Shown here: one piece after another, positions 1-15,060 of the stretch | How positions within the stretch are numbered: the first letter of the stretch is position 1 | Layout: every line of letters starts with the position of its first letter | Virus record (IMG/VR): IMGVR_UViG_2875683775_000007 | Direction: 5' to 3' (one strand) | Source: a virus | Lineage: Duplodnaviria; Heunggongvirae; Uroviricota; Caudoviricetes | Length of the DNA: 15,060 nt | The notes under the pieces: model-generated | What the model saw: only the letters and a program-made list of their open reading frames with translations | Told to the model about the DNA's origin: nothing | Database searches by the model: none | Position numbers and translations under genes: made by a program

Positions 1-201
1 TTACCCATTGGCGCGGCTTAAGAGCTTATTTTTGAATTCACAATGGTCACGATATAACCATCTTGCTCGCCCGTGGATAACTTTGGCTTTTGGAAGGTCT
101 CCGGACTTAATCCGATCATAGATGAAGGTTTTACCGAAGCCAGTATCGGCCATGATGAATTTCAAATCAACCAGTGAATCAGGCTGTAGTTCGTGTTGCA
201 T
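1..201 (-). CDS. torI: AlpA/TorI-family excisionase (recombination directionality factor), 66 aa
   Basis: Complete 66-aa ORF with stop at 1-3 and ATG at 199-201, preceded by GGAGA about 9 nt upstream. Small basic winged-helix-like protein typical of AlpA/Xis family; sequence matches my recollection of E. coli TorI of the argW prophage KplE1. Same strand as intS, as expected for the unusual KplE1/Sf6/HK620 recombination module. Confidence 0.6.
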   Translation of the reverse strand: MQHELQPDSLVDLKFIMADTGFGKTFIYDRIKSGDLPKAKVIHGRARWLYRDHCEFKNKLLSRANG

Positions 202-220
202 GAGTGCTATCTCCGAATAG

Positions 221-236
221 GGAATCGAACCTGCAA
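221..236. repeat. 16-bp exact direct copy (GGAATCGAACCTGCAA) of the argW T-arm segment found at 11310-11325; att core-like sequence
   Basis: Exact 16/16 identity between 221-236 and 11310-11325 in the same orientation; flanks on both sides are unrelated. Not a full tRNA, because no acceptor or complementary T-stem strand follows. Confidence 0.6.
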
Positions 237-246
237 ATCAGGTAAT

Positions 247-267
247 AAAAAAACCGCATTGATGCGG
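247..267 (-). terminator. Rho-independent terminator downstream of the 325-669 gene (minus strand)
   Basis: Inverted repeat CCGCA/TGCGG (254-267) with a run of 7 A on the plus strand (247-253), which is a 7-U tail on the minus-strand transcript. Confidence 0.55.
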
Positions 268-324
268 CGATGGTAGGTCTGGATATCTTGATAAATGAAA
301 ATGCCTCATCGAGTGTGAGGCGGG

Positions 325-669
325 TTAGTCCTTGCGTAGCTCGCTGATTCTTCTGTAAGTCTCTGGTGCTTTGTTCCCGTACGTCTTCATTTCAGACTTC
401 AACAGAGCAACGAGTGAATCCCATTCGTTGAGGATTCCTTTGAATGCCGGAACGCGCTTTGCAACCTTGTCGAATGAATCTCTGATTTCTGGAATCTGCT
501 CAACAAGTGCAACGCATCGTCGGAAATCGGCTGCGTCATGTGGAGCGCCGAAGCTATGACCATAGATATTCTTTTTCAGTCCACATGCGATTGAGGCAAG
601 AGTTGCGCTACTGATGCCTACATCGCCAGTCGATTGCCATTTCAAAACCTTCATAGCCAAATCTGACAT
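325..669 (-). CDS. Hypothetical prophage protein (about 114 aa from MSDLAMKV start)
   Basis: Open frame with GGAGA RBS 6-10 nt upstream of the ATG at 667-669; the ORF-track start at 696 lies in the terminator hairpin and is less likely. No family recognised. Confidence 0.5.
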   Translation of the reverse strand: MSDLAMKVLKWQSTGDVGISSATLASIACGLKKNIYGHSFGAPHDAADFRRCVALVEQIPEIRDSFDKVAKRVPAFKGILNEWDSLVALLKSEMKTYGNKAPETYRRISELRKD

Positions 670-683
670 TTCTTGTCTCCAAT

Positions 684-706
684 AAAAAACCGCCATCAGG
701 CGGTTT
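684..706 (-). terminator. Hairpin with flanking A/T runs; terminator-like on the minus strand, weaker on the plus strand
   Basis: Stem CCGCC (690-694) / GGCGG (699-703), preceded by an A-run (684-689) and followed by TTT; on the minus strand this is a hairpin plus a U-run just upstream of the RBS of the 325-669 gene. Confidence 0.45.
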
Positions 707-1115
707 GGTGTTCTTTCTGTTCTTCAATTCGAATATTGGTTACGTCTGCATGCGCTATCTACGCCCATATCATCCAGTGGTTATAGCAGTCGTTGATGTC
801 CTCTGCTTCGATAACCCTGAGACGGTCGCAAGATGGCTTGATGCTATGGCAAACCTTGAGCGACGAAACGCGCAGTTTAATGAGTTTAAAGCCGAGTGGA
901 TGAGCGCGAATGGCAACCCTGGACAATCGCGTAATGGCGGTCAGATATTGGGGTTGGATGTTAAAAAAGGTGAATCATTGGGGAGTGCCGTTAAGCGGTA
1001 TATGTCAATGAATACTGACGCAGCGCCAGCACAAGATTCGACACCTTCAGGAGAACCACGGAATCAGGTTGGATCATATACATCAAAATCAGGCATTCAA
1101 TTTACGGTGGAATGA
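705..1115 (+). CDS. Small ORF translationally coupled to the downstream gp16-like gene; possibly the 5'-truncated 3' end of a gp20-like ejection-protein gene
   Basis: Stop TGA at 1113-1115 overlaps the ATG of the next gene (ATGATG). The first ~20 codons run through the terminator hairpin and look non-coding, so the real coding start, if any, is later (for example the MANLERRN region). Position matches P22 gene 20 immediately upstream of gene 16. Confidence 0.3.
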
Positions 1116-2953
1116 TGAAAGTAACTGCAAACGGTAAGACATTTACCTTTCCTGATGGTACGAGCACCGAAGATATTGGCACCGCCATTGATGAGTATTT
1201 TGCTGGTCAGGCTGTTCAGCAACAAACAGTTAATCAGGCCAATAATGCACCAACACGGGAAGAGCCATCATTGATCCAACAAGCTGGCGATTGGCTCACT
1301 GGTGGTCAAAGTGCAGGGCAAATTGCAGAACAGGCTGGTCGTGGTCTGGTAAACATACCATTTGACGTATTGCAGGGCGGCGCAAGTCTGATTAATGCAA
1401 TCAGTCAGGGGCTTGGTGGACCCAAGGTTTTGGATGATGTTTATCGTCCAGTAGACAGACCGACAGACCCCTACGCGCAAGCCGGTGAAACAATTGGTGG
1501 GTATTTAGTTCCAGGAGTTGGAACGGCAGGAAGCATGGCTATTGGATCACTGGCAGAGGCCGCAAATCAGAAAGGCGATTTCGCACAAAATGCAGCTAAA
1601 AATGCCGGAGTTAACCTTGCCACTCAGGGTGTTCTTTCCGCAGCAGCAAAGGGAATAGGGCGTGGAATAACGGCTATAAAAGGTGATATTGCGCCAGAAG
1701 TGGCGAAGAAAATTACCACATCAGAATCGATGGGCGTGACACCAATGACATCTGATGTTATCCCGCCGAAAAATGCTTTCACTCGCGGCCTAACTCAGGA
1801 TGCCGAGGGGGCTTTGCTCGGGACAGGCTCAAAGCGAGCGGAGCAATATGCAACGCGTAGTAAGCTGGTAAGTAATTATTTTGACCGTTTTGGTGAGTAC
1901 AACCCTGATGATGTGGTGAAATCTCTTACCACCACGTTAAGGGGGCGGAAGGATGCCGCTGGCGCTGTTATCAATGACGTCACCAATAAAATGGGTAATG
2001 CCGCAGTTGATACCACAAATACCATGAATGCTCTGAATACAGCGATCGCAAGACAGGAACGGCTTGGGACGTCTGCCAATCAAAGCCTGCTTACATCCTT
2101 GCGTAACCTACGTGAAGAATTAGCAAACCCTGCAACTGATTTGGATGTTACGTTTGATCTCTTGCGTCAGCACAGAACAGCATTTAGATCTAATGTTCAG
2201 GGAGATGCTATGGTCTTCCCCAACCAGGCAAAAGCAGCTACCAATATGGTAGAGAATGCAATGTCAAAAGACCTTCGTAACGCAGTTGCTAAAAACCTCG
2301 GTGCATCAGACGCAGCAAAATACCTTAAAGCAAATTCCGATTATGCAAACGTTTATAATAAGGTGCTTAATAAAAACATTGCTAACAAGCTCAACAAGGC
2401 AAGCAGTGAAGCCAGTCCTGAACTTATAAATACCGTTGTATTAAGCAGAAAACCATCTGACGTGAAACGAATATGGAGCGCCCTGGATGATAAAGGGAAA
2501 GATGCTATGCGTGCAGCTTACGTCAGCAAAATAGCGGAAAAGGCCGGTGACTCTCCAGCCAAGTTCATCACTGAAGTTAATAAGCTGAAATCTCAGTCAG
2601 GCGGTGAAATTTACAACACTATTTTTTCTGGAAAGCACATGAAAGAGCTTGATGCTCTTCATGAAGTTCTACAGCAAACAGCAAGGTCAGACACCGCAAA
2701 TGTAGTAACTCAGACGGGGCAATCACAAGCCAACAGGATAAGGACGATTGGCGCAACTGCGACTCTTGGTGTATCAATGGGGCTTGAGGCTGGCTTTGGT
2801 GCAATGATGCGTTTGTATGAGTCCAAAGCAGCAAGGAATGCTCTCTTACGTCTGGCAAACACTAAAGCTGGAACGCCAGCCTATGAAAGAGCGTTGAGTA
2901 ACGCTGCAAATGCCATCAGGCCGCTGCTTGCTACTGAGGCAACACAGCAGTAA
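1112..2953 (+). CDS. Phage DNA ejection/internal virion protein, P22 gp16-like (613 aa)
   Basis: 613-aa Ala/Gly/Gln-rich protein of almost the size of P22 gp16 (609 aa), located immediately upstream of the immI/moron region as in P22 gene order; GGTGGA RBS before ATGATG. Assignment is by size and synteny, not sequence recall. Confidence 0.5.
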
Positions 2954-2977
2954 CGTATGGGGAATTGGATTCAATCG

Positions 2978-3367
2978 TTAACATTTTCTTTTTACTTTTC
3001 CAACAAAAGCTTTGGTTGAATCCATATTCCCATAACCAGAAATGGTTTTCGACATTAAAACTGTTCCATTAGGATGTATTACCCATGAGTCGATAACTCG
3101 TTGAGTTTCGCCATTCGCGCCGATTCCAATGATGGAGTTTTTAGACAATGCTTTGTAAGCCATGCCGCCCGCATCCGTCCCAGAATATGTGATACTGGCA
3201 TCTTCACCGTTTGTCTTAATGATGAATGTTCCACTAAAACCATCTTCTTCCGGTTGAAAATTATTTCGTTCTGAATAGCTTATTCCGTGCATATCTCCAA
3301 CGACCCAGCACTCTGCTGAGACAGAAAACGAGAAGACAAGGAAAGCCATTGCTATAATCAATTTCAT
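2978..3367 (-). CDS. Small secreted protein (cleavable signal peptide, 129 aa), function unknown; prophage moron
   Basis: N-terminus MKLIIAMAFLVFSFSVSA is a typical Sec signal with an AxA-type cleavage site; mature part has Cys near both ends. Lies with mnt on the minus strand in the slot where P22 carries sieA. Confidence 0.6.
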   Translation of the reverse strand: MKLIIAMAFLVFSFSVSAECWVVGDMHGISYSERNNFQPEEDGFSGTFIIKTNGEDASITYSGTDAGGMAYKALSKNSIIGIGANGETQRVIDSWVIHPNGTVLMSKTISGYGNMDSTKAFVGKVKRKC

Positions 3368-3382
3368 TTTAAGCCCTTATTG

Positions 3383-3718
3383 TTATTGATTCTTTTTGCA
3401 CGGAAATGTTTTTCCTACTGCTAGGGCGGTTAGTATAACTGCACTCTCATTTCTTGATTCTGGGTTTTTGTTTAGATATTTCTCAACGATATCGGTGTAT
3501 TGATACATGTCAACGCCATCAGGAGGACATAGAGAACCAATTAGTATCAATGAGTCAGTTACTCCGCGCAAATATCCAGTAATGTAAAGCGATGAAAAAT
3601 CATCACCCTTTTTACCTTGTTGAATGTTGTAAAGAAGGTCATTACCCGTTTGAAGCTCGCGCAGCTCAGCACTGGAAGAAGAGACAACTGCTAACAAGAA
3701 CAGTGATAGAAATCTCAT
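3383..3718 (-). CDS. Small secreted protein (signal peptide, 111 aa), function unknown; prophage moron
   Basis: N-terminus MRFLSLFLLAVVSSSSA is a Sec signal; two Cys in the mature part; its start overlaps the mnt stop by 4 nt, suggesting an operon with mnt. Confidence 0.6.
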   Translation of the reverse strand: MRFLSLFLLAVVSSSSAELRELQTGNDLLYNIQQGKKGDDFSSLYITGYLRGVTDSLILIGSLCPPDGVDMYQYTDIVEKYLNKNPESRNESAVILTALAVGKTFPCKKNQ

Positions 3719-3969
3719 TTCAAATCCTTTTCATAAATCTTTTTAAGTGTCTCAAACACTATAGCCTTGAACTGCTCAGCCTGCTGATCAGCCAAGCGTT
3801 CAGCTTCGTCGCGATATCCTGTAATCGGTGATGGTTTTGATAGTGCATCCTGAACGATTTGTAATAACTCAGAGTTCATTGACCTTCCGTTAGCCTCGGC
3901 TCTTAATTTCAATTTTTCTCTTACTTCCAAAGGCATACGGAAGTTAAAGTGCGGATCATCTCTAGCCAT
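3715..3969 (-). CDS. mnt: Mnt repressor (P22 immI)
   Basis: Protein begins MARDDPHFNFRMP...RAEANGRSMNSELLQIVQDALSKPSP, recognisably P22 Mnt (ribbon-helix-helix); GGAG RBS 9 nt upstream; divergent from arc. Confidence 0.85.
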   Translation of the reverse strand: MARDDPHFNFRMPLEVREKLKLRAEANGRSMNSELLQIVQDALSKPSPITGYRDEAERLADQQAEQFKAIVFETLKKIYEKDLK

Positions 3970-3991
3970 GCCATCACTCCAAGTTAGTGTA

Positions 3992-4021
3992 TTGACATGA
4001 TAGAAGCACTCTACTATATTC
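3992..4021 (+). promoter_or_regulatory. Pant promoter (-35 TTGACA 3992-3997, -10 TATATT 4015-4020) overlapping the Arc operator ATGATAGAAGCACTCTACTAT (3997-4017); divergent Pmnt elements overlap on the minus strand
   Basis: Consensus -35 and near-consensus -10 with 17-bp spacer; the 21-bp spacer/operator sequence matches the P22 arc operator as I recall it. On the minus strand TTGAGA (4020-4025) and TATCAT (3997-4002) form a plausible Pmnt. Confidence 0.7.
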
Positions 4022-4026
4022 TCAAT

Positions 4027-4043
4027 AGGTCCACCGTGGACCT
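4027..4043. promoter_or_regulatory. Mnt operator, perfect 17-bp palindrome AGGTCCACCGTGGACCT
   Basis: Perfect dyad centred at 4035, between Pant and the arc start, matching the known P22 Omnt sequence and position. Confidence 0.75.
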
Positions 4044-4059
4044 ATATTGTGAGGTGAAC

Positions 4060-4221
4060 ATGAAAGGAATGAGCAAAATGCCACAGTTCAATTTGCGGTG
4101 GCCTAAAGAAGTATTGGATTTGGTACGCAAGGTGGCGGAAGAAAATGGTCGGTCTGTTAATTCTGAGATTTATCAGCGAGTAATGGAAAGCTTTAAGAAG
4201 GAAGGGCGCATTGGTGCGTAA
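4060..4221 (+). CDS. arc: Arc repressor (P22 immI), 53 aa
   Basis: MKGMSKMPQFNLRWPKEVLDLVRKVAEENGRSVNSEIYQRVMESFKKEGRIGA is P22 Arc-like throughout; GAGGTG RBS at 4051-4056. The ORF-track start at 3997 lies in the operator and is rejected. Confidence 0.9.
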   Translation: MKGMSKMPQFNLRWPKEVLDLVRKVAEENGRSVNSEIYQRVMESFKKEGRIGA

Positions 4222-4289
4222 AGTTGAAGCCCCAACTGCTGTAACAGTCAGGGCTTCGGCATCAACAAATCGGATTAGGAAATATTGAC
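4222..4289 (-). ncRNA. sar: Candidate sar-like antisense RNA covering the ant RBS
   Basis: Minus-strand promoter-like elements (-10 TATACT, complement of 4296-4301; weak -35) would start transcription near the ant start codon; inverted repeat GAAGCCC/GGGCTTC at 4226-4258 sits about 65 nt downstream. Matches the known arrangement of P22 sar, but the terminator lacks a clear U-run. Confidence 0.3.
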
Positions 4290-5168
4290 ATGAAAAGTAT
4301 AGCAAAGGCACAAAACGATTTCACCATCTTCAAATTCGGCGACAGTGAAATCCGCGTCATCAACAAGTGCGGTGAGCCGTGGTTTGTAGCTAAAGATGTT
4401 TGTGATGCTTTAGATTTGACTAACTCACGCAAGGCGCTTACTGCACTTGATGACGATGAAAAGGGAGTAACTTTAAGTTACACCCTTGGTGGTGAGCAGA
4501 ATCTAAGCATTGTGAGCGAATCAGGTATGTATACATTGGTTCTGCGCTGCCGCGATGCAGTCAATAAAGGTTCAGTCCCGCACAAATTCCGCAAGTGGGT
4601 AACAGCAGAAGTTCTGCCTTCAATTCGCAAACATGGCGAGTATGTAAAAGGAAAGAAAACCACTGTTGAGGAAAGAACACCGCTACGCGATGCAGTAAAC
4701 ATGCTGGTAGGAAAGAAAGGACTTCGCTATGACGATGCATACAATATGGTTCATCAGCGTTTTGGTATTGACAGCATTGATGAACTTTCAATTGAACAAA
4801 TCCCGCTGGCCGTAGAGTACATCCACAGGGTAGTGCTTGAAGGTGAGTTCATTGGCAAACAAGAGAAGAAAACCAACGAGCTTTCTGCAAAAGAAGCAAA
4901 CAGCCTTGTATGGTTATGGGATTATGCCAACCGCTCACAGGCATTATTCCGCGAACTGTATCCGGCGCTAAAACAAATTCAATCGAACTATTCCGGCAGA
5001 TGCTACGACTACGGTCATGAATTCTCGTATGTTATCGGAATGGCGAGAGACGTTTTAATAAACCACACACGAGATGTTGATATCAATGAGCCAGACGGAC
5101 CAACGAATCTTTCCGCATGGATGAGACTTAAGAATAAAGAATTACCTCCTTCAGTACATAACTACTGA
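4290..5168 (+). CDS. ant: Antirepressor Ant (Bro-N domain protein)
   Basis: N-terminal region ([26 protein letters not shown]) is a Bro-N/antirepressor motif; directly downstream of arc as in P22; AGGAAA RBS. Confidence 0.8.
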
Positions 5169-5187
5169 CAGATAACCAACGCAACGA

Positions 5188-5210
5188 CCCAGCTTCGGCT
5201 GGGTTTTTTT
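5188..5210 (+). terminator. Rho-independent terminator after ant
   Basis: CCCAGC-TTCG-GCTGGG hairpin followed by 7 T. Confidence 0.8.
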
Positions 5211-5269
5211 ATGCCCAAAATTCACCGTAGCTACGCTGCGGCGATTCCTTGTATCTGGAGCAAATTAAA

Positions 5270-7918
5270 ATGACAGATTCAATAAATGCCAATGTTGTGG
5301 TAAGCATGCCTTCTCAACTCTTCACTATGGCGCGTTCTTTTAAAGCCGTAGCCAATGGTAAAATTTATATCGGTAAAATTGACACTGATCCGGTAAATCC
5401 AGAAAACCAGATTCAGGTTTATGTGGAGAACGAAGACGGCTCTCACGTTCCTGTTTCTCAACCAATCATCATTAACGCTGCTGGTTATCCGGTATATAAC
5501 GGACAGATTGCCAAATTCGTTACCGTGCAAGGCCATTCTATGGCTGTTTATGATGCGTATGGTGCACAGCAGTTCTATTTTCCTAATGTGCTGAAGTATG
5601 ACCCGGATCAGTTTAAACAAAAAGTATTATCAAATGATATGCTAAATATGTCTCCTCTTTATTTTGGAGCTAAGGGGGATGGGATTAGCGATGATACTGA
5701 AGCATTTGTCGCGTTGGAAATGGATATAAAAAATAGGGTTATTGATTTAAGTGGAAGAGCATTTTTTGTTACTAAAAGTTTTATTGGAAATAGCTATATA
5801 AATGGTTCTTTTATTCGTGATGGCAGTAAACGAATTGCGATTGGTGATCTTAAATTAAGAGATAAAAGAGAGCCGTTGATATTTTCCGGAATGCCAAAAG
5901 TATATAACACCAGACACACGTTGCGCAGAACTGAAGGTGCGGGTGGTTTATATGCGGTCATTCAGGGGTGTTGTTATGATGAAATTAACGACAAGATTTT
6001 TACTTTATCATCTACCACAGCATACGGTTATTGCATTAATGCCTTTGACGTGACGAATTCTGGTGAACTAGGAAGATACGACAGAACCCGTTCTACTGAA
6101 CTTGGGCATCAGGGGCTTGGATTGCATCATAATCCTGATGGTACTGTCGTGCTGTGGACATCGAAGCCTTATGGAACCGATGCCGCCAATCAATGTATTT
6201 CGATGGAAAATATATTGAGTTACACAGGGACAACCAACGGAGTATCTGAAGGTTTTATCACCTGGAAGTTGTTCCCCTATGATGGAATGAGCGCAAGCTC
6301 TACTCCAGCTGTATCAAGTTGTGAAAACTATCTACTTGCCAAGAAAATTTCATCGGATGGAATTACCTGCACGGTTCGTGTTTTCGACATAGTCAGCATG
6401 TGGAATAACAGAGCTCATAAAACTGATTATAGTGATGATTATTTAGTTGAGTTTAGCTATCAAAAACCATCACAAGAAGCATTTACCCAATCAATTGCTT
6501 GCGATGGGGCATACATTTACATACTTGAGTCACATACGTATGTTGGCATGACTAATTATATTTACGTATTTGCCTTAACAGGCAGGTTTATTGAGCGAGT
6601 AGATATTTCAACTGTTGGTGATGATGAAGCAAAATCTGACAGTACAGGAACTCCTGTTTATAAAGAGCCTGAGTCCCTAACAGTAATTAGAACGGAGAGT
6701 GGGTATGTTTTAACGCTGGGGATATGCACATATAAAGGAGTTGCTGAGAACGGGAAAAATGTATATCTGTTTGATATAGGCAGGTCTGGTTCGGTAGTGC
6801 AAAGCAAAGCAAGCCGTTCTGTATCCAGTAATACTGGTCTTCATAGTTCTGGCTCCCCGGAGTTCAAATATGGAGTAAGGGAGTACAATGATACTTTTCA
6901 CTGGACAGTTTGGCCAACAAGAAAGGGTTTTCAAACTAACCGGGATAACCCTATATTGTTTCTTGATGGCGGAATTACTGGTGGAATGCAGTTAGCTTCA
7001 AACGGCACGGAAGGGATGAGCAACTCATGGGTTTCCCGGCATCAGTCAGACACCGCAGAAGGACCAAGAGCAATAATGTATAAGTCTCGCTCTGGTGTTG
7101 TATCAACTGATAATTTTGGAGCTCTGCAGACAGGGGATGTATTGGGTACTCATGTATGGGCCGGTGATACAGGTAGTAAGGCTGTGCAATGCGCACACAT
7201 TAAATGCGTCACAAGAGGTAATCCTTCCGGAGACAATATCCCGGTTGCTTTCTACTTTGGAACCATGGGAGAGAGTGACGGCTTGCGTGACAGATGGGTA
7301 TTAACAGAATTAGGTCATTTTCGACCATCAGGTTCAAATCTTTATGATATTGGTACACAGTCGAATACTGTCAGAAACCTGTATATAAATAATAGCCCCA
7401 TTGTAACCAGCGACAGAAATTATAAGCAGGATGAAGCTTCATTATCTGATGCAGAACTACGGGTTGGAATGGCTATTTACCCGCTGATAAAAAAATTCAG
7501 AATGAAGGATGCTGTAAAAGAAAAAGGCTTGTCAGCGCGTGAGCATATCGGTGTAATTGCGCAAGATATACAATCCATCTTTGAATCTGAGGGGCTTGAT
7601 GCATTTTCTTATGGGGTTCTTTGCTATGAAGAGTGGGATGATGAGTATGAGAAAGTCTATGCAACAAGAAATGTGACCAGAAAAATTTTAATTGATGAAG
7701 AGTCTGGTCAGTATGATGAAATCACAGAGGAAGAAGAGTATGAAACTGGTGAAGTAAGGTTAATTATGGAATCAGGAAGAAAATTATCAGTGCGCTATGA
7801 CGAGTTAATGTTTCTGGCAATGAGCGCACTATATCATCACCATGAGCAGGATATTGCCAATATCACATCAAAGATTAATAATCTGGAAAAATTATTAAAG
7901 TTAACACTAAATGGTTGA
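5270..7918 (+). CDS. Tailspike protein: P22 gp9-like head-binding N-terminus, right-handed beta-helix (pectate-lyase-like) receptor domain, C-terminal intramolecular chaperone (peptidase S74-like) domain
   Basis: [44 protein letters not shown] is near-identical to the P22 tailspike N-terminus as recalled; [14 protein letters not shown] is the hallmark start of pectate-lyase-type beta-helix domains; C-terminal ~150 aa (SDAELRVG...[12 protein letters not shown]...) resemble the auto-cleaving chaperone domain of endosialidases and tail fibres. Start chosen at 5270 (GGAG RBS) rather than 5249. Confidence 0.85.
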
Positions 7919-7964
7919 TATGTGGTACTTTTAATGTATGCCCAGCTACATGCTGGGCAATGTT

Positions 7965-9080
7965 TTAAATTTCAGCTATAAAACCTTCATAATTATTTTG
8001 TAAAAAAGGTTTGATGAACTTACGCTGAGGGGTATAAATCATATCCTGATTTACTAAATCTGAGCGGATATTGAAAGTGGTTGAGAGCATGTTAAAGAAC
8101 ATCCTTTTCTTTTGCTCGTTGCCACCTGCTTTACCACATACCTTTTCCATCATTTCAAGGCATATCACCAGCCACGCATTGTAAAGCTTGGCCTTTTCTT
8201 CGTTAGTTTTTCCGCAAAAGTAAATCGTGTTAATAACCGAGTTAAGAATGAAGTGTCTATCTTCAAGAGGAAATTTTTGCCTTGATAAATGACCATTACC
8301 ATGGAATGTTAAATGATAATAATCTTTGTCAGCAAGAATAGATATATTGTTTGCTACAGATAGAGATTGAACCATAAATATTTTATCTTCAGCTACGGTG
8401 ATAGCTGGGTTGAAGAGAATGTTATGCTCTTTAAGCATATTTCTTCGGAAGAATTTGAAAATAGTTAACGACCGCAAGAGGTGATGCTTGGTTATATCTG
8501 CCTTATCTACAATTTTCACCTTGTATGGACGGATAGGCACCTCGCGATTACCATCTGATGCAATTTTGAAGTAAACAATATCACTATTATTTTTATCAGC
8601 AATATGAACCCCTCTCTCAAGAAGAGTTTCGTCAATATAGTCATCGGAATCCATGAAGAAAATATAACGCCCTTTTGCTGCTTTTATCCCCTCATTTCGC
8701 GGGGTTGAAGCGTTACCTGAACCAATTTCTCGGCGAATAATTCTGTAGTTAATATCCGGTGCTATATTATATTCTATAGCAGCAATGCTTTTGTCACTTG
8801 AACAATCATCGACAAAAATAACCTCAAAGCGATCCTTATTAATTGTTTGGTTATTAAGTGAGTTAATGCATTTAAGAATAAGTTTTTCACGATTATGAAC
8901 AGGGATAACAACTGACACATCTAATGGGCAAAAATGGTTAATCTCATTAACTACAGTCGTTATTTTAGTAAAAGCCGCCAACAAAGCTGTTGTTAAATCA
9001 GTAGAAGATAAAAGGCTTTCTTTTTTAGTATTAGCTTTTATGTTAAAATAGAACCAATTATTACGAGGTACAAAATCCAC
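7965..9080 (-). CDS. Family-2 glycosyltransferase catalytic-domain ORF (downstream part of phase-variable gene; frame stays open upstream through the repeat)
   Basis: VSVVIPVHNRE...FEVIFVDDCSSD...FFMDSDDYID are GT2 (GT-A fold) signature motifs including the DxD. The ORF-track M at 9080 is a GTG with no RBS; in this frame the sequence reads (SQPA)n-FVSV upstream with no stop. Gene is visibly AT-rich compared with the flanking chromosome. Confidence 0.8.
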   Translation of the reverse strand: MDFVPRNNWFYFNIKANTKKESLLSSTDLTTALLAAFTKITTVVNEINHFCPLDVSVVIPVHNREKLILKCINSLNNQTINKDRFEVIFVDDCSSDKSIAAIEYNIAPDINYRIIRREIGSGNASTPRNEGIKAAKGRYIFFMDSDDYIDETLLERGVHIADKNNSDIVYFKIASDGNREVPIRPYKVKIVDKADITKHHLLRSLTIFKFFRRNMLKEHNILFNPAITVAEDKIFMVQSLSVANNISILADKDYYHLTFHGNGHLSRQKFPLEDRHFILNSVINTIYFCGKTNEEKAKLYNAWLVICLEMMEKVCGKAGGNEQKKRMFFNMLSTTFNIRSDLVNQDMIYTPQRKFIKPFLQNNYEGFIAEI

Positions 9081-9082
9081 GC

Positions 9083-9433
<351 letters not shown>

Positions 9434-9976
9434 TGTACAACCTCTATTGTTAGCAATGTTTATTGGTATTCAAAAATAAGGCGCTAATATTGGGGCCACC
9501 ATATCTTTGTCGTGTTTAATTATTGTTTGGCCATTCGCATCACGCTTTGCTATGTGGCGTAATATTATTTATGAGTGCGAATAGTTTCGCTTGTTATTGT
9601 TTTGCTGGTCATAAGTTTGACATAGTCAAATCCACAGAATATCATTTAAGTATATCTAAGAGCCGAGCATTATATGTGCGCATGTATTGGATGTGAAGGT
9701 CGAGCATTAGTCCGGGATGTCATATATTCCTGAAAAGGTAACATGCTTAATAATTGCTAAGAAAGTACATACCTAATCTGAAAGAGTCTGGCTATAGGTT
9801 TGCGCACAAGATCATAGAACTTGTTTTGTTTATAGATAGCACAACATATGGATTTAGTTGAAATTGCATGGATGATTTGATCGCAGGAACTCAGAATTGC
9901 AGATGAGACAAAACTGAGACACACAAAGCTTTGCACTGGATTGCAAGACTTTGTGCTATTCGATAGTTAAGGTGTA

Positions 9977-11134
9977 TCACTCCACCTTTTCATCAATCCA
10001 GTCCGCCCACCACTGCATCATTTCTCTGCGCTTATCTAGATACTGAGCATGGTTGTAAATCCCGCGCACAGATCCGCCGTTGGCATGTGCCAGTTGCACT
10101 TCAATGGCGTCGGCGGGCCATTCGTGCTCGTTCATAATCGTGCTGAATTCATGCCTGAATCCGTGACCGCTTTCCAGACCTTCATAGCCGATTTTTTTGA
10201 TCACAAGCAGTACCGCATTCTCGCAGATTGGCTTCTTCTTATCGTTGCGACCGGCAAAAACAAACTCTGATACTGGTTTAGTGATTGAGCTTAGCGTAGT
10301 GAGAAGTTCAACTACCTGGTCTGACATAGGAACCACATGAATTTTGCGTCCCTTCATCACACTGGCGTCGATGGTGATAATCCTGTTTTCAAAATCGACG
10401 TTCTTCCATAGCATGGAACGAAGCTCTTTCGTTCTTAGGGCTGTGTAGCGCAAAACTTTAGTCGCAATGAGCGATACGATGCTTCCTGAAAATGTTGCAA
10501 GTGCTTTGTTGAATGCCGGGATCTGGTCGGCAGGAAGAAACGGGAAGTTCTTCTTGCGGTATCCCTTCATGGCGTCAGCAAGGTCAGGTGCTGGGTTATA
10601 TTTAGCCCTGCCGGTGACAATAGCGTAACGGAAAACCTCGCCGCATCTTCTGCGGGCTTTGTTGGCTCGCTCCATTGCACCGCGATCTTCGAATCTGCGG
10701 ATTACTTCCAGCAGTTGCATCGGCTCAATATCCTGAATCTCAAGGCCGCCGATGATGGGCAAAATGTCGTCATCAAACATTTTGGCAAGTTCAGTTGCAT
10801 AGCCTACTGACCAGACTTGCTTCTTGTGCTCGTACCATTCCTTGTAAATCGCACTAAATGAATTGTTGTTAGACGAAGCCTTTTTCGCCTTTACCGGGTC
10901 GATGCCAACCGAGATGTCTTTCCTCGCGGTCCATGCTTTATCCCTTGCTTCCTGCAAAGTCATAAGCGGATATTTTCCGACGGTCAGGATTTTCTCCTTA
11001 CCGTCAATCTTGTAGCGAAGCTGCCATACCTTTTTCCCTGACACAGGGACATAAAGGTACAGGCCATTACCATCGAGTAGGCGGTATGGTTTTTCTTTCG
11101 GCTTTGCTGCTTCAATCTGCTTAACGGTGAGCAT
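9977..11134 (-). CDS. intS: P4/KplE1-type tyrosine integrase (385 aa from MLTVKQIE start)
   Basis: Adjacent to the 3' end of argW and co-oriented with it; N-terminus and length match IntS of the argW prophage as I recall it; C-terminal region carries the tyrosine-recombinase catalytic domain. An alternative upstream GTG start at 11170 (ORF track) cannot be excluded. Confidence 0.85.
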   Translation of the reverse strand: MLTVKQIEAAKPKEKPYRLLDGNGLYLYVPVSGKKVWQLRYKIDGKEKILTVGKYPLMTLQEARDKAWTARKDISVGIDPVKAKKASSNNNSFSAIYKEWYEHKKQVWSVGYATELAKMFDDDILPIIGGLEIQDIEPMQLLEVIRRFEDRGAMERANKARRRCGEVFRYAIVTGRAKYNPAPDLADAMKGYRKKNFPFLPADQIPAFNKALATFSGSIVSLIATKVLRYTALRTKELRSMLWKNVDFENRIITIDASVMKGRKIHVVPMSDQVVELLTTLSSITKPVSEFVFAGRNDKKKPICENAVLLVIKKIGYEGLESGHGFRHEFSTIMNEHEWPADAIEVQLAHANGGSVRGIYNHAQYLDKRREMMQWWADWIDEKVE

Positions 11135-11180
11135 GGGTAAAAATCCGGTGGGTAAAATTATTTTATCCACTTTTTACCCG
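11135..11180. promoter_or_regulatory. Clustered GGGTAAAA(A/T) motifs (two direct, one inverted) at the int start, in the attL/int promoter region
   Basis: GGGTAAAAA at 11135-11143, GGGTAAAAT at 11150-11158, inverted copy CTTTTTACCC at 11171-11180; candidate integrase arm-type or RDF binding sites. Confidence 0.35.
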
Positions 11181-11295
11181 TCATGGAGTGCGGCTGTCAA
11201 CGATCTGACGCGAACCATTACGAACTGTGCATCTACAGAAGGCTTGATATTCAGGGGATTTTGCGGACTGGTACGGATGGGGGCGAACTGATAAA

Positions 11296-11370
11296 TGGTG
11301 TCCCCTGCAGGAATCGAACCTGCAATTAGCCCTTAGGAGGGGCTCGTTATATCCATTTAACTAAGAGGAC
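11296..11370 (-). tRNA. argW: tRNA-Arg (anticodon CCU), 75 nt including CCA
   Basis: Reverse complement reads GTCCTCTTAGTTAAATGGATATAACGAGCCCCTCCTAAGGGCTAATTGCAGGTTCGATTCCTGCAGGGGACACCA; cloverleaf with 7-bp acceptor stem, anticodon loop CUCCUAA, T-loop TTCGATT. Confidence 0.95.
11310..11325. other. attL core candidate inside argW (16 bp identical to 221-236)
   Basis: Exact direct repeat of the 221-236 sequence, located in the tRNA T-arm next to the integrase gene. Confidence 0.55.
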
Positions 11371-11445
11371 AATGCGGCATGAGTATACCCGCTAATGGAG
11401 TGCGGGGTAAGTACGCTGCCGCTCGATTGCTTAAACCCTCGCCAT

Positions 11446-12378
11446 TTATGCCGGGTTTTTATAATTTTTCTTAATGTTTTCCGCACGTTCTGCTTTTTGG
11501 CGTGCTTCTGCTTTACGCTTATTGCTCATGTCGTTACGAATCTGTGCATGACTCATTAACGCGAAGATAAAGGTGCCGCCGCAGATGTTCCCCGCTAAAG
11601 TAGGTAGTGCGAAGGGCCAGATGAAATCGCTCCAGTGCAGCGTGCCGTTAAACACCAGATAGAGGATTTCAACAGAACCGACCACGATATGGGTGGTGTC
11701 ACCCAGGGCAATAAGCCAGGTCATCAATATAATCACCACAATCTTTGCCGCACCCGCTGCAGGAAACATCCAAACCATAGTGGCGATCAGCCAGCCGGAA
11801 ATGATCGCGTTGGCAAACATCTCGCTGGGGGTGTTCTTCATCACATCCATGCCGATTTTGACAAATGCATCGCGAGTTTCTTCATTGAAGATAGGCATAT
11901 ATTCAAATGCCCACGCCGCAATACCTGTCCCGAGAATATTACCCAGCAGCACGACGCCCCATAACCGTATAAGTAAGCCGACGTTGCTCATTGTCGGTTT
12001 TTGCATGACGGGTAGTACCGCAGTCACGGTATTTTCGGTAAATAATTGCTGGCGGGCCATAATGACGATAATAAAACCAAAGGTATAACCGAGATTCTCC
12101 AGCAAGAAGCTGCCCGGCACACCTTCCAGTTCGACATGAAATATCCCTTTTGCCAGTAACGAAGCGCCCATCGACAGACCCGCCGCAATGGCTGACCACA
12201 GTAGCGCCATTGCGTCGCGTTCCAGCTCTTTTTCACCATCCTGGCGGATATGCTCATGAATTGCCATCGCCCGGGAGGGGAGTCGGTCTTCATCTATTTC
12301 TATTTTTTTGCCGCGCTCTTTTTCTTCGCTCTCAACTTCAATTTCGTCGCTGTGTTGATCAATTTTGTCGTTGTCCAT
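11446..12378 (-). CDS. yfdC: Inner-membrane protein of the formate/nitrite transporter family
   Basis: 310-aa protein with acidic N-terminal tail followed by multiple hydrophobic helices; sequence and position next to argW match E. coli YfdC as recalled. Confidence 0.85.
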   Translation of the reverse strand: MDNDKIDQHSDEIEVESEEKERGKKIEIDEDRLPSRAMAIHEHIRQDGEKELERDAMALLWSAIAAGLSMGASLLAKGIFHVELEGVPGSFLLENLGYTFGFIIVIMARQQLFTENTVTAVLPVMQKPTMSNVGLLIRLWGVVLLGNILGTGIAAWAFEYMPIFNEETRDAFVKIGMDVMKNTPSEMFANAIISGWLIATMVWMFPAAGAAKIVVIILMTWLIALGDTTHIVVGSVEILYLVFNGTLHWSDFIWPFALPTLAGNICGGTFIFALMSHAQIRNDMSNKRKAEARQKAERAENIKKNYKNPA

Positions 12379-12671
12379 GGTCTCTTCTCTTGAATTAGCA
12401 CGTATAGCTAAAGCGTAGCGGCTTTTTTGCTCGCAACTGACGGGAGTTACTCTGAAAATGTAGAAAAGGCTGCGTTTGCCTTTTTCTGTTTCTATAAAAT
12501 CAAGTAGCCTACAGGGCGGCGATTACCAGGCTATGATCAAATCAGCAAATCAGGGCGTCTGGACATCAGTTGACGTGCTGTTACAATCGCCCACACCTAA
12601 ACAGGCGGATACGGTATCGTTCCGTCATGGATGGCAAACTGCATAAGCCATAAAAAAACAGGGAGACATTT

Positions 12672-13427
12672 ATGAAGCTTCGCCTGTCGGCGCTTGCTCT
12701 GGGAACTACGCTTCTGGTGGGGTGTGCGAGTTCCGGTACAGATCAGCAAGGGCGTTCTGACCCGTTAGAAGGGTTCAACCGCACCATGTACAACTTCAAC
12801 TTCAATGTATTAGACCCGTATATTGTTCGACCGGTCGCTGTCGCCTGGCGTGATTATGTTCCGCAACCGGCGCGTAACGGTTTGAGCAACTTTACTGGCA
12901 ACCTTGAAGAACCTGCGGTGATGGTTAACTACTTCTTGCAGGGCGACCCTTATCAGGGGATGGTCCACTTTACCCGCTTTTTCCTGAACACCATTTTGGG
13001 GATGGGCGGTTTTATTGATGTTGCAGGGATGGCGAACCCGAAACTGCAACGGACTGAACCTCACCGCTTCGGTAGTACGCTTGGTCATTATGGCGTGGGT
13101 TATGGGCCTTACGTCCAGTTACCGTTCTACGGTAGCTTCACGCTGCGTGATGACGGTGGTGATATGGCGGATGGTCTTTACCCGGTTCTTTCCTGGCTGA
13201 CCTGGCCGATGTCTGTGGGTAAATGGACGCTTGAAGGGATAGAAACTCGTGCGCAGTTGTTGGATTCCGATGGTCTGCTGCGTCAGTCGTCCGATCCTTA
13301 TATTATGGTGCGCGAAGCGTACTTCCAGCGTCATGATTTCATCGCTAATGGCGGCGAACTCAAACCGCAGGAAAATCCGAACGCACAAGCGATTCAGGAT
13401 GATTTAAAAGATATTGATTCTGAATAA
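12672..13427 (+). CDS. mlaA: Outer-membrane lipoprotein MlaA (VacJ), phospholipid transport
   Basis: 251 aa, lipobox LLVGC at the N-terminus, conserved MlaA/VacJ core; divergent from yfdC as in E. coli. Confidence 0.9.
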   Translation: MKLRLSALALGTTLLVGCASSGTDQQGRSDPLEGFNRTMYNFNFNVLDPYIVRPVAVAWRDYVPQPARNGLSNFTGNLEEPAVMVNYFLQGDPYQGMVHFTRFFLNTILGMGGFIDVAGMANPKLQRTEPHRFGSTLGHYGVGYGPYVQLPFYGSFTLRDDGGDMADGLYPVLSWLTWPMSVGKWTLEGIETRAQLLDSDGLLRQSSDPYIMVREAYFQRHDFIANGGELKPQENPNAQAIQDDLKDIDSE

Positions 13428-13440
13428 GAAACAAATAAAA

Positions 13441-13471
13441 AAGGTGAGTCGCAAAACTCACCTTTTTTGTT
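13441..13471. terminator. Bidirectional rho-independent terminator between mlaA and the convergent downstream gene
   Basis: AAGGTGAGT-CGCAAA-ACTCACCTT hairpin flanked by an A-run upstream and a T-run downstream, so both strands get a U-tail. Confidence 0.8.
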
Positions 13472-13608
13472 GTTATCCCTCAATTACCACAAGTAAAAGG
13501 AGATAAACCGACAATGACCCGGACGTAATGATGTAAAAATACTGATGTTCGTCACTGACTATTTCCGATATTCAGGCGTTGAAAAATCAAAAAACTGGAA
13601 AAATAATT

Positions 13609-13911
13609 TTAAATATCATCAAAATTAACACCTGGCGCAGATAGTTGATTAATTTCATTTTGATATTTCGCCTGGCGATTTTGAAGTCTTTTTTCAACGT
13701 TATCTTCGAGATCCTTAAAGTCTTTGTATTTATTTTCAGGATGGTCAACGTCAACTTTGTTAGCGAATAAATTAGAAATTATTTCTTTTACATTATCGCG
13801 TCTAAATTTTGCATCGTCCACTTGAAAATCATATCTTATTGCTCGACCATAACGTTTAAAAACGTCGTTTGGTTCTCTCAGTCTTTCCCCGTTGAGCTCG
13901 TTTACAACCTG
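13609..13911 (-). pseudogene. 3' portion of a chromosomal gene split by IS1 (C-terminal 100 codons)
   Basis: Frame is open from the IS1 junction (QVV at 13903-13911) to the stop at 13609; the ORF-track start at 13821 is a GTG within this frame. By synteny with E. coli K-12 this would be the gene next to mlaA (possibly yfdF), but I do not recognise the sequence itself. Confidence 0.6.
13903..13911. repeat. IS1 target-site duplication, left copy (TACAACCTG)
   Basis: 9-bp sequence identical to 14680-14688 directly flanking the IS1 ends. Confidence 0.9.
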
Positions 13912-13966
13912 GGTGATGCTGCCAACTTACTGATTTAGTGTATGATGGTGTTTTTGAGGTGCTCCA

Positions 13967-14242
13967 GTGGCTTCTGTTTCTATCAGCTGTCCCTCCTGTT
14001 CAGCTACTGACGGGGTGGTGCGTAACGGCAAAAGCACCGCCGGACATCAGCGCTATCTCTGCTCTCACTGCCGTAAAACATGGCAACTGCAGTTCACTTA
14101 CACCGCTTCTCAACCCGGTACGCACCAGAAAATCATTGATATGGCCATGAATGGCGTTGGATGCCGGGCAACTGCCCGCATTATGGGCGTTGGCCTCAAC
14201 ACGATTTTACGTCACTTAAAAAACTCAGGCCGCAGTCGGTAA
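13967..14242 (+). CDS. insA: IS1 InsA (transposition inhibitor/N-terminal part of InsAB' transposase)
   Basis: 91-aa protein [23 protein letters not shown]... matches IS1 InsA. Confidence 0.9.
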
Positions 14243-14664
14243 CCTCGCGCATACAGCCGGGCAGTGACGTCATCGTCTGCGCGGAAATGGACGAACAGTG
14301 GGGCTATGTCGGGGCTAAATCGCGCCAGCGCTGGCTGTTTTACGCGTATGACAGTCTCCGGAAGACGGTTGTTGCGCACGTATTCGGTGAACGCACTATG
14401 GCGACGCTGGGGCGTCTTATGAGCCTGCTGTCACCCTTTGACGTGGTGATATGGATGACGGATGGCTGGCCGCTGTATGAATCCCGCCTGAAGGGAAAGC
14501 TGCACGTAATCAGCAAGCGATATACGCAGCGAATTGAGCGGCATAACCTGAATCTGAGGCAGCACCTGGCACGGCTGGGACGGAAGTCGCTGTCGTTCTC
14601 AAAATCGGTGGAGCTGCATGACAAAGTCATCGGGCATTATCTGAACATAAAACACTATCAATAA
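14161..14664 (+). CDS. insB: IS1 InsB reading frame (expressed as InsAB' transposase by programmed -1 frameshift)
   Basis: 167-aa frame [21 protein letters not shown]... matching IS1 InsB; overlaps the insA 3' end in the -1 frame. Confidence 0.85.
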
Positions 14665-14679
14665 GTTGGAGTCATTACC

Positions 14680-14688
14680 TACAACCTG
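14680..14688. repeat. IS1 target-site duplication, right copy (TACAACCTG)
   Basis: Identical to 13903-13911. Confidence 0.9.
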
Positions 14689-15060
14689 ATGATCGGAACC
14701 AGTTGCAAATGATTCTGCCATGATAGCTTTACTGCTTTCAAACCACGCTGAAGCACTCCTGGCGTTTTCACTACAATATTGGGTGAGACTATCACCATTA
14801 ATACGAATTCCTCTTTGAATGTGGTAGTCGTCCTGATCGTAGTAACCGAGAGATAAGTAATCATTTCCGTTTTTATTTTTAATTACAATAGCGAGAGAGT
14901 CGCCTTTTTTATCTTTACCGTACCAGGTAAATAAGTCCGTTGGTTCGCTTTTCCCGCTCTCATCAAATTCCGTTACCGTATGTCTGAGTTTGTGTGATAT
15001 CTTATCGAAGATAAAACCAGGATCTCCATCATATATTTCTTTTAATGCGCTGAAGATCAT
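14680..15060 (-). pseudogene. 5' portion of the same IS1-interrupted gene (runs to the window edge; may continue beyond it)
   Basis: 127 native codons ending in QVV (the TSD) before the ORF-track frame runs into IS1; joins in frame to 13609-13911 once IS1 and one TSD copy are removed. Confidence 0.6.

Follow-up and report, generated by a model that had tools for sequence, protein, structure and literature searches.

An IS1A element within yfdF

The right-hand part of the window (the whole stretch of DNA that was analysed, 15,060 nucleotides in length) holds an intact mlaA gene, a hairpin terminator and, convergent with mlaA, a gene that is split by a complete copy of IS1A. From left to right, the features of this part are the following:

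12672-13427, plus strand: mlaA, intact, 251 aa (Pfam MlaA, E 2.7e-65)
13437-13468, no strand assigned: hairpin terminator between mlaA and yfdF, 14-bp stem (terminator scan)
13609-13911, minus strand: 3' fragment of yfdF, codons 253-352 with the stop codon; contains the left duplication copy
13903-13911: left target-site duplication copy, TACAACCTG, 9 bp, abutting the IS1 end
13912-14679, plus strand: complete IS1A, 768 bp, the only IS1 copy in the window
13967-14242, plus strand: insA, 91 aa (Pfam Zn_ribbon_InsA and HTH_Tnp_IS1)
14161-14664, plus strand: insB' frame (Pfam DDE_Tnp_IS1, E 5.9e-78)
14680-14688: right target-site duplication copy, TACAACCTG, 9 bp, abutting the IS1 end
14680-15060, minus strand: internal part of yfdF, codons 129-255 (alignment to K-12, T28R and REL606)

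The inserted element shows all of the traits by which the IS1A family is recognized, namely its length, imperfect ends of about 23 bp starting GGT(G/A)ATG, the insA/insB' arrangement with an A6C frameshift motif, an 8-9-bp duplication, and identity to a reference copy. Specifically, the terminal inverted repeats (IRL, 13912-13934, on the mlaA side; IRR, 14657-14679, on the side of the 5' part of yfdF) agree at 18 of 23 positions, and the element starts with GGTGATGCTGCCAACTTACTGAT and ends with ATCAATAAGTTGGAGTCATTACC. Its frames match PF03811, PF12759 and PF03400, with E-values in insA of 1e-21 for Zn_ribbon_InsA and 5e-31 for HTH_Tnp_IS1. The motif AAAAAAC lies at 14218-14224, and a -1 frameshift at this site is predicted to give expression of insB' as InsAB'; the RefSeq annotation of the REL606 copy likewise mentions a 'programmed frameshift'. 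That copy, labelled 'IS1-like element IS1A family transposase' in RefSeq, is identical to the window copy over 768/768 bases, and the copy in H1827/12 differs from it by 1 base. The transposase is read in the direction opposite to yfdF and away from mlaA. The G+C content of the element is 53%, and no other insertion sequence was found in the 15-kb window.

With respect to the interrupted gene, the sequence-only reading had described an AT-rich gene adjoining mlaA and convergent with it, and alignment to K-12 together with locus order identifies this gene as yfdF (the matches carry the RefSeq names yfdF or icaT). K-12 yfdF is a single 352-aa gene at the same position, the alignment to it supports orthology, and mlaA is annotated at the same locus in REL606, H1827/12 and K-12. 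The gene lies between mlaA and fadL, the mlaA side being read in the window itself and the fadL side from the identical loci of REL606 and H1827/12. Its fragments have a G+C content of 37%, versus 52% for mlaA, and the left one aligns to columns 758-1060 of K-12 and T28R yfdF. The window covers the last 224 of the 352 codons, and the gene extends a further 385 nt past its end; the promoter (with its MxiE box) and the first 128 codons lie beyond position 15060, and the ATG found there is the internal Met129 rather than the start of yfdF. Within the window, an intact frame of about 352 codons is absent, IS1 having split the gene after codon 255, and the 5' frame enters IRR for 26 codons before reaching a stop at 14599 (ORF 14599-15060). 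No model in Pfam or NCBIfam matched YfdF. A 70-aa ORF at 13609-13821 was considered as a marker of the insertion and rejected, as the same ORF occurs in assemblies in which yfdF is broken by nonsense or frameshift changes.

The structure of the junctions is that of a simple IS1 insertion with a true 9-bp target duplication and no rearrangement. The clean split had been proposed from the window alone, and both the proposal and its positions proved accurate: two copies of TACAACCTG abut the element, and when IS1 and one of these copies are excised, 15060-14689 joins 13911-13609 on the minus strand in one open frame of 224 codons that ends at a TAA at 13609-13611. Comparison with uninterrupted alleles, which had been suggested as a check, gives the same picture, as T28R and K-12 each carry one gene with one target site. 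In E. coli T28R, whose yfdF region is uninterrupted, all bases of the rebuilt 783-bp sequence are matched (783/783) in a single piece, and the nucleotide identity to K-12 is 95.7%. At least 80% of the rebuilt sequence was recovered as one joined place in 4,263 of 5,426 complete E. coli genomes; as the search joined pieces separated by up to about 890 bp, this count may include genomes interrupted by IS1. That the flanks are instead separate genes and the two 9-mers alike by chance has a practically negligible probability: TACAACCTG occurs exactly twice in the window against a mean of 0.07 copies in shuffled windows, and K-12 and T28R carry one continuous gene in which the 9-mer is single-copy and falls exactly at the junction (K-12 yfdF nucleotides 757-765, codons Q253-V255).

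The prophage remnant at argW

To the left of the mlaA region, positions 1-11200 of the window hold what is left of a P22-like (Lederbergvirus-type) prophage integrated at argW, namely its right end. Its recognizable parts, with the adjoining tRNA gene, are these:

1112-2953: gp16-type ejection protein
3383-3718: Rap1a-type immunity protein
4290-5168: Ant
5270-7918: tailspike with head-binding and S74 chaperone domains
7965-9433, minus strand: family-2 glycosyltransferase (GT2) gene, ATG at 9433
9977-11134: IntS
11296-11370: tRNA-Arg(CCT), with the prophage remnant to its left

This part of the window is mosaic, with a maximum coverage of 59% in complete E. coli genomes and 31% in phage records, and no complete E. 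coli genome contained more than 85% of window positions 9000-15060 in one place. A version of the argW prophage with a different tailspike is present in H1827/12, and REL606 is without the remnant. The exact tailspike protein of the window was found in the draft assembly GCA_002092895.1, where dsdC lies immediately to the left of the remnant, so most of the phage is missing there. A spacer that appeared '121-bp longer' in this assembly was considered as variation in repeat number and discarded, the difference being due to a stretch of N at the microsatellite.

The microsatellite in question is a perfect (AGCC)47 tract at 9090-9279, for which Tandem Repeats Finder gives (TGGC)47.5 on the plus strand; it falls within the 5' coding portion of the prophage glycosyltransferase gene. 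At 47 units, a stop codon directly follows the tract (OFF), and at 45, 48 or 51 units one protein of 486-494 aa would be encoded, made up of the N-terminus, (SQPA)n and the GT2 domain. The same cassette, at 99.9% identity and with 70.5 units, is carried by another P22-like prophage in E. coli GMF054, and any match to it is found in only 29 of 5,426 complete E. coli genomes. A paralogue with 85-94% identity lies in a P2-like prophage of E. coli B. Its inferred unit numbers in near-isogenic stocks are 7.75 (REL606), roughly 11, 22, 35 and 36, and up to about 45, and it forms one fused 1362-nt CDS (ON) in ATCC 11303 and is split (OFF) in REL606. The gene looks like a candidate slipped-strand phase-variable phage moron encoding a surface-modifying glycosyltransferase; the differences in unit number could instead reflect errors in the assembly of long repeats. 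A brief literature search found no description of an (AGCC)n glycosyltransferase.

Carriers of the junction and a probably earlier frameshift

The insertion described here is already known, in that it is annotated by RefSeq in E. coli B genomes; a literature search found no paper pairing yfdF with IS1, and the known status thus refers to annotation rather than to publication. Window positions 13400-15060 are present at 100% and in one piece in the E. coli B strains REL606, BL21(DE3), C41, C43, BLR and ATCC 11303 and in many derivatives. The yfdF::IS1 locus of E. coli B (REL606 ECB_RS11935/ECB_RS23940/ECB_RS25520; BL21(DE3); ATCC 11303) is accordingly alike in its IS1A copy, orientation, duplication and flanks. 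At the carrier locus in REL606 and H1827/12, RefSeq/PGAP lists a partial pseudogene of yfdF, then the IS1A transposase, then another partial pseudogene. A 240-bp probe for the left junction was found at 100% and in one piece in 51 complete E. coli genomes (about 1% of those available), all with identical IS1 orientation and flanks. These include the human isolates H1827/12, MIN14 (O7:H4), E100341, AST19, AST205 and EC0026B, together with the whole laboratory E. coli B/BL21/REL606 family. The same TACAACCTG junction is also present in the draft assembly GCA_002092895.1, in which the contig ends 18 nt into IS1. An exact scan for the 33-nt junction among GTDB representatives returned 0 hits, this collection holding one genome per species and having no bearing on Shigella.

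The distribution of the junction also bears on its age. The carriers differ in prophage content at argW, which is 2.3 kb from the insertion, and a junction that is shared despite prophage gain and loss so close by indicates an insertion that predates the carriers' common ancestor. The insertion had been called recent, which is correct insofar as no substitutions have accumulated; the presence of the junction in 51 complete E. coli genomes, however, makes it older than their common ancestor. From the identical position, orientation and flanks, we infer a single insertion event in an ancestor common to E. coli B and related wild strains, although movement of the junction segment between lineages by recombination is an alternative route to the same distribution. 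With respect to the source of the window itself, REL606 differs in lacking an argW prophage, such that dsdC abuts tRNA-Arg, whereas the window has a P22-like remnant of about 11 kb at this site. The window therefore comes from a relative of E. coli B and from none of the E. coli B genomes compared.

A feature shared by the alleles closest to that of the window is a +1 frameshift caused by one additional A that follows AAAACC, at yfdF nucleotide 107 (+A107). This change is found in T28R, which has no IS1 in the gene, in EC-107, which has IS1 in the yfdF-fadL spacer, and in REL606 and H1827/12, which have IS1 at the window site; K-12 and four other yfdF alleles are without it. With +A107, translation from the native ATG ends after 37 codons, with a stop at codon 38, and RefSeq flags these genes as 'frameshifted'. 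Nucleotide 107 lies 279 nt past the end of the window, and the frameshift in the window's own genome is thus presumed from alleles that are identical over the overlap. As the closest alleles with and without IS1 all carry +A107, IS1 was likely not the killer of a working gene. It probably landed in a gene that +A107 had already inactivated, and parsimony would place the frameshift before the insertion.

The converse account, in which a still functional yfdF of the source genome was recently inactivated by IS1 as the primary lesion, draws on the window itself, where the halves rejoin as a perfect open frame with no second defect and the duplication and flanks show zero decay. Nonetheless, we regard it as unlikely, since +A107 is present in every overlap-identical allele, including T28R without IS1 and EC-107, and since the insertion is common to lineages of differing prophage content. 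It is very unlikely, in turn, that the window derives from a Shigella-type genome undergoing IS-driven decay, with this insertion as one of many. Here the sequence-only reading, which had spoken of an IS1 density typical of Shigella-like genomes, was mistaken, as there is a single IS copy in 15 kb and the junction is shared by 51 complete genomes of the E. coli B group; neither a high IS density nor an insertion specific to Shigella/EIEC was found. The carriers are relatively rich in IS1, with about 27-29 IS1-containing places per genome (collection median 10, maximum 68), which is a trait of E. coli B and not of Shigella. IS-rich assemblies with IS1 beside yfdF do exist (L013, L014, L018 and L020), but their IS1 is located elsewhere, 47 bp upstream of the ATG and in the opposite orientation, and they have other yfdF lesions. 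Moreover, the junction and the prophage remnant of the window occur together only in the draft assembly GCA_002092895.1.

The four IS-dense loci just mentioned (L013, GCA_000268005.1; L014, GCA_000268225.1; L018, GCA_000188795.2; L020, GCA_000268045.1) contain, within 12 kb, at least two copies of IS1, along with an IS110-family element and fragments of IS3-family elements. From their accession prefixes, we take them to be probably Shigella sonnei. They give a picture of what a Shigella-type locus looks like, in contrast to the window.

Transcriptional context and the decay of yfdF

It had been suggested that an outward promoter of IS1 might affect transcription on the mlaA side. The arrangement of the locus speaks against this, as mlaA is transcribed toward IS1 and ends at 13427, 484 bp from the element. 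Between mlaA and yfdF, the hairpin at 13437-13468 (aaaaaaggtgagtcgcaaaactcaccttttttg) has an A-run on one side and a T-run on the other and is potentially bidirectional. The sole promoter-like site called in IRL faces inward, no outward-facing one was called there, and the region as a whole shows no enrichment in promoter-like hits (5 versus 3.1 +/- 1.8 expected). With mlaA convergent, 484 bp away and beyond a strong hairpin, no route for an effect of IS1 is apparent, and an outward-promoter effect on mlaA is, from this geometry, implausible.

Under a broader version of the same idea, the insertion would be functional: an outward or hybrid promoter, or a break in the H-NS filament, could alter transcription around mlaA or fadL. 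IS1 can form hybrid promoters and relieve H-NS silencing at other loci, and IS1 and IS5 at bgl are an example of disrupted H-NS silencing. The AT-rich DNA of yfdF is indeed bound by H-NS (PMC9769918). Such a role is nevertheless highly improbable at this site: mlaA lies upstream of the insertion, is convergent with it and is insulated by the strong hairpin, IRL has no outward promoter-like site in a region that is not enriched for such sites, and fadL is separated from the insertion by more than 1 kb, is encoded on the opposite strand and lies beyond the yfdF promoter. IS1 is, in addition, generally polar.

The biology of yfdF is best described in Shigella flexneri, where yfdF/icaT has a functional MxiE box and is activated by MxiE/IpgC, and where the IcaT product is a substrate of the type III apparatus with an N-terminal secretion signal (PMC9241512, PMC9769918). 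H-NS silences the gene in both Shigella and E. coli, and its expression requires MxiE/IpgC, which are absent from E. coli (PMC9769918, PMC9241512). In an E. coli without mxiE and ipgC, yfdF would thus be silent regardless of the insertion, and readthrough of its 5' frame into IRR is rendered moot by the frameshift and H-NS silencing. The gene of the window and icaT of S. flexneri are orthologous, AT-rich, located at the same locus near fadL and mlaA, and without a known protein family; they differ in that the window gene is split by IS1 and the alleles nearest to it are also frameshifted. For icaR and icaT, some traits have been taken to suggest fossil genes (PMC9241512).

Across genomes, yfdF has been disrupted many times. 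Among complete genomes, IS1 was found at five other sites in the gene or the spacer upstream of it, and each insertion is flanked by its own duplication of 8-9 bp:

Combat13F7: CGAAGATAA
KH_005: AATTCCTC
MB57: CTCTCAGTC
GF66.2: AAAACTTCG
EC-107, in the upstream spacer: CCTATCTTT

These insertions resemble that of the window in being simple, in their 8-9-bp duplications and in striking the same AT-rich gene. They are unlike it in position and sometimes in isoform (3 to 42 mismatches), and these differing positions and isoforms point to independent IS1 events. Further lesions of yfdF in other assemblies are Q282*, E264* and 1-bp deletions, and the IS-rich loci combine a 1-bp deletion with an 11-bp duplication and with the oppositely oriented IS1 that lies 47 bp upstream of the ATG; the loci with independent lesions are L002, L006-L009, L014, L015, L017, L018 and L021. 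In total, at least 7 independent IS1 sites lie in about 1.2 kb of the yfdF region in E. coli and probable Shigella. An apparent bias in the orientation of IS1 in yfdF (6/6 the same) was dismissed as an ascertainment artefact, the query having joined yfdF and IRL pieces on one strand, and it is also contradicted by L014 and L018, in which IS1 has the opposite orientation.

The many independent lesions fit relaxed selection on a silent gene, and they also fit the preference of IS1 for AT-rich targets. We tentatively raise yfdF/icaT as a candidate preferred landing pad for IS1, in which AT-rich DNA coated by H-NS would act together with the relaxed selection that a fossil gene for a type III effector would experience. 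We hold this idea to be somewhat less probable than its opposite, the count of at least 7 sites being one for the yfdF region.

Taken together, these observations lead to the following account. IS1A inserted itself at codons 253-255 of yfdF, which duplicated the 9-bp target TACAACCTG and rearranged nothing else. This would have happened once, in a common ancestor of E. coli B and related wild strains, and been inherited since, and the window comes from a member of this group that also bears a P22-like prophage remnant at argW. The struck allele most likely carried +A107 already, such that the insertion would be a neutral second hit in a decaying gene with no expected effect on mlaA. We assign this account as a whole (IS1A into yfdF, a single ancestral event, a gene likely already dead, a neutral outcome) a probability of roughly 0.92.

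In terms of significance, a neutral-looking second hit in a silent gene without known function in E. coli carries little biological weight, and it illustrates that an IS element which cleanly splits a gene within a window is not necessarily the lesion that killed it. The junction GAGCTCGTTTACAACCTG/GGTGATGCTGCC (IS1 boundary at the slash) is a clean marker of the lineage that comprises E. coli B, BL21, REL606 and wild strains related to them, and it could be used to flag BL21 contamination or to place unknown isolates. The parallel decay of yfdF/icaT by many routes supports the view of this gene as a 'fossil gene' (PMC9241512). If the landing-pad reading is true, yfdF would be a leftover of an ancient association with a pINV-like plasmid.
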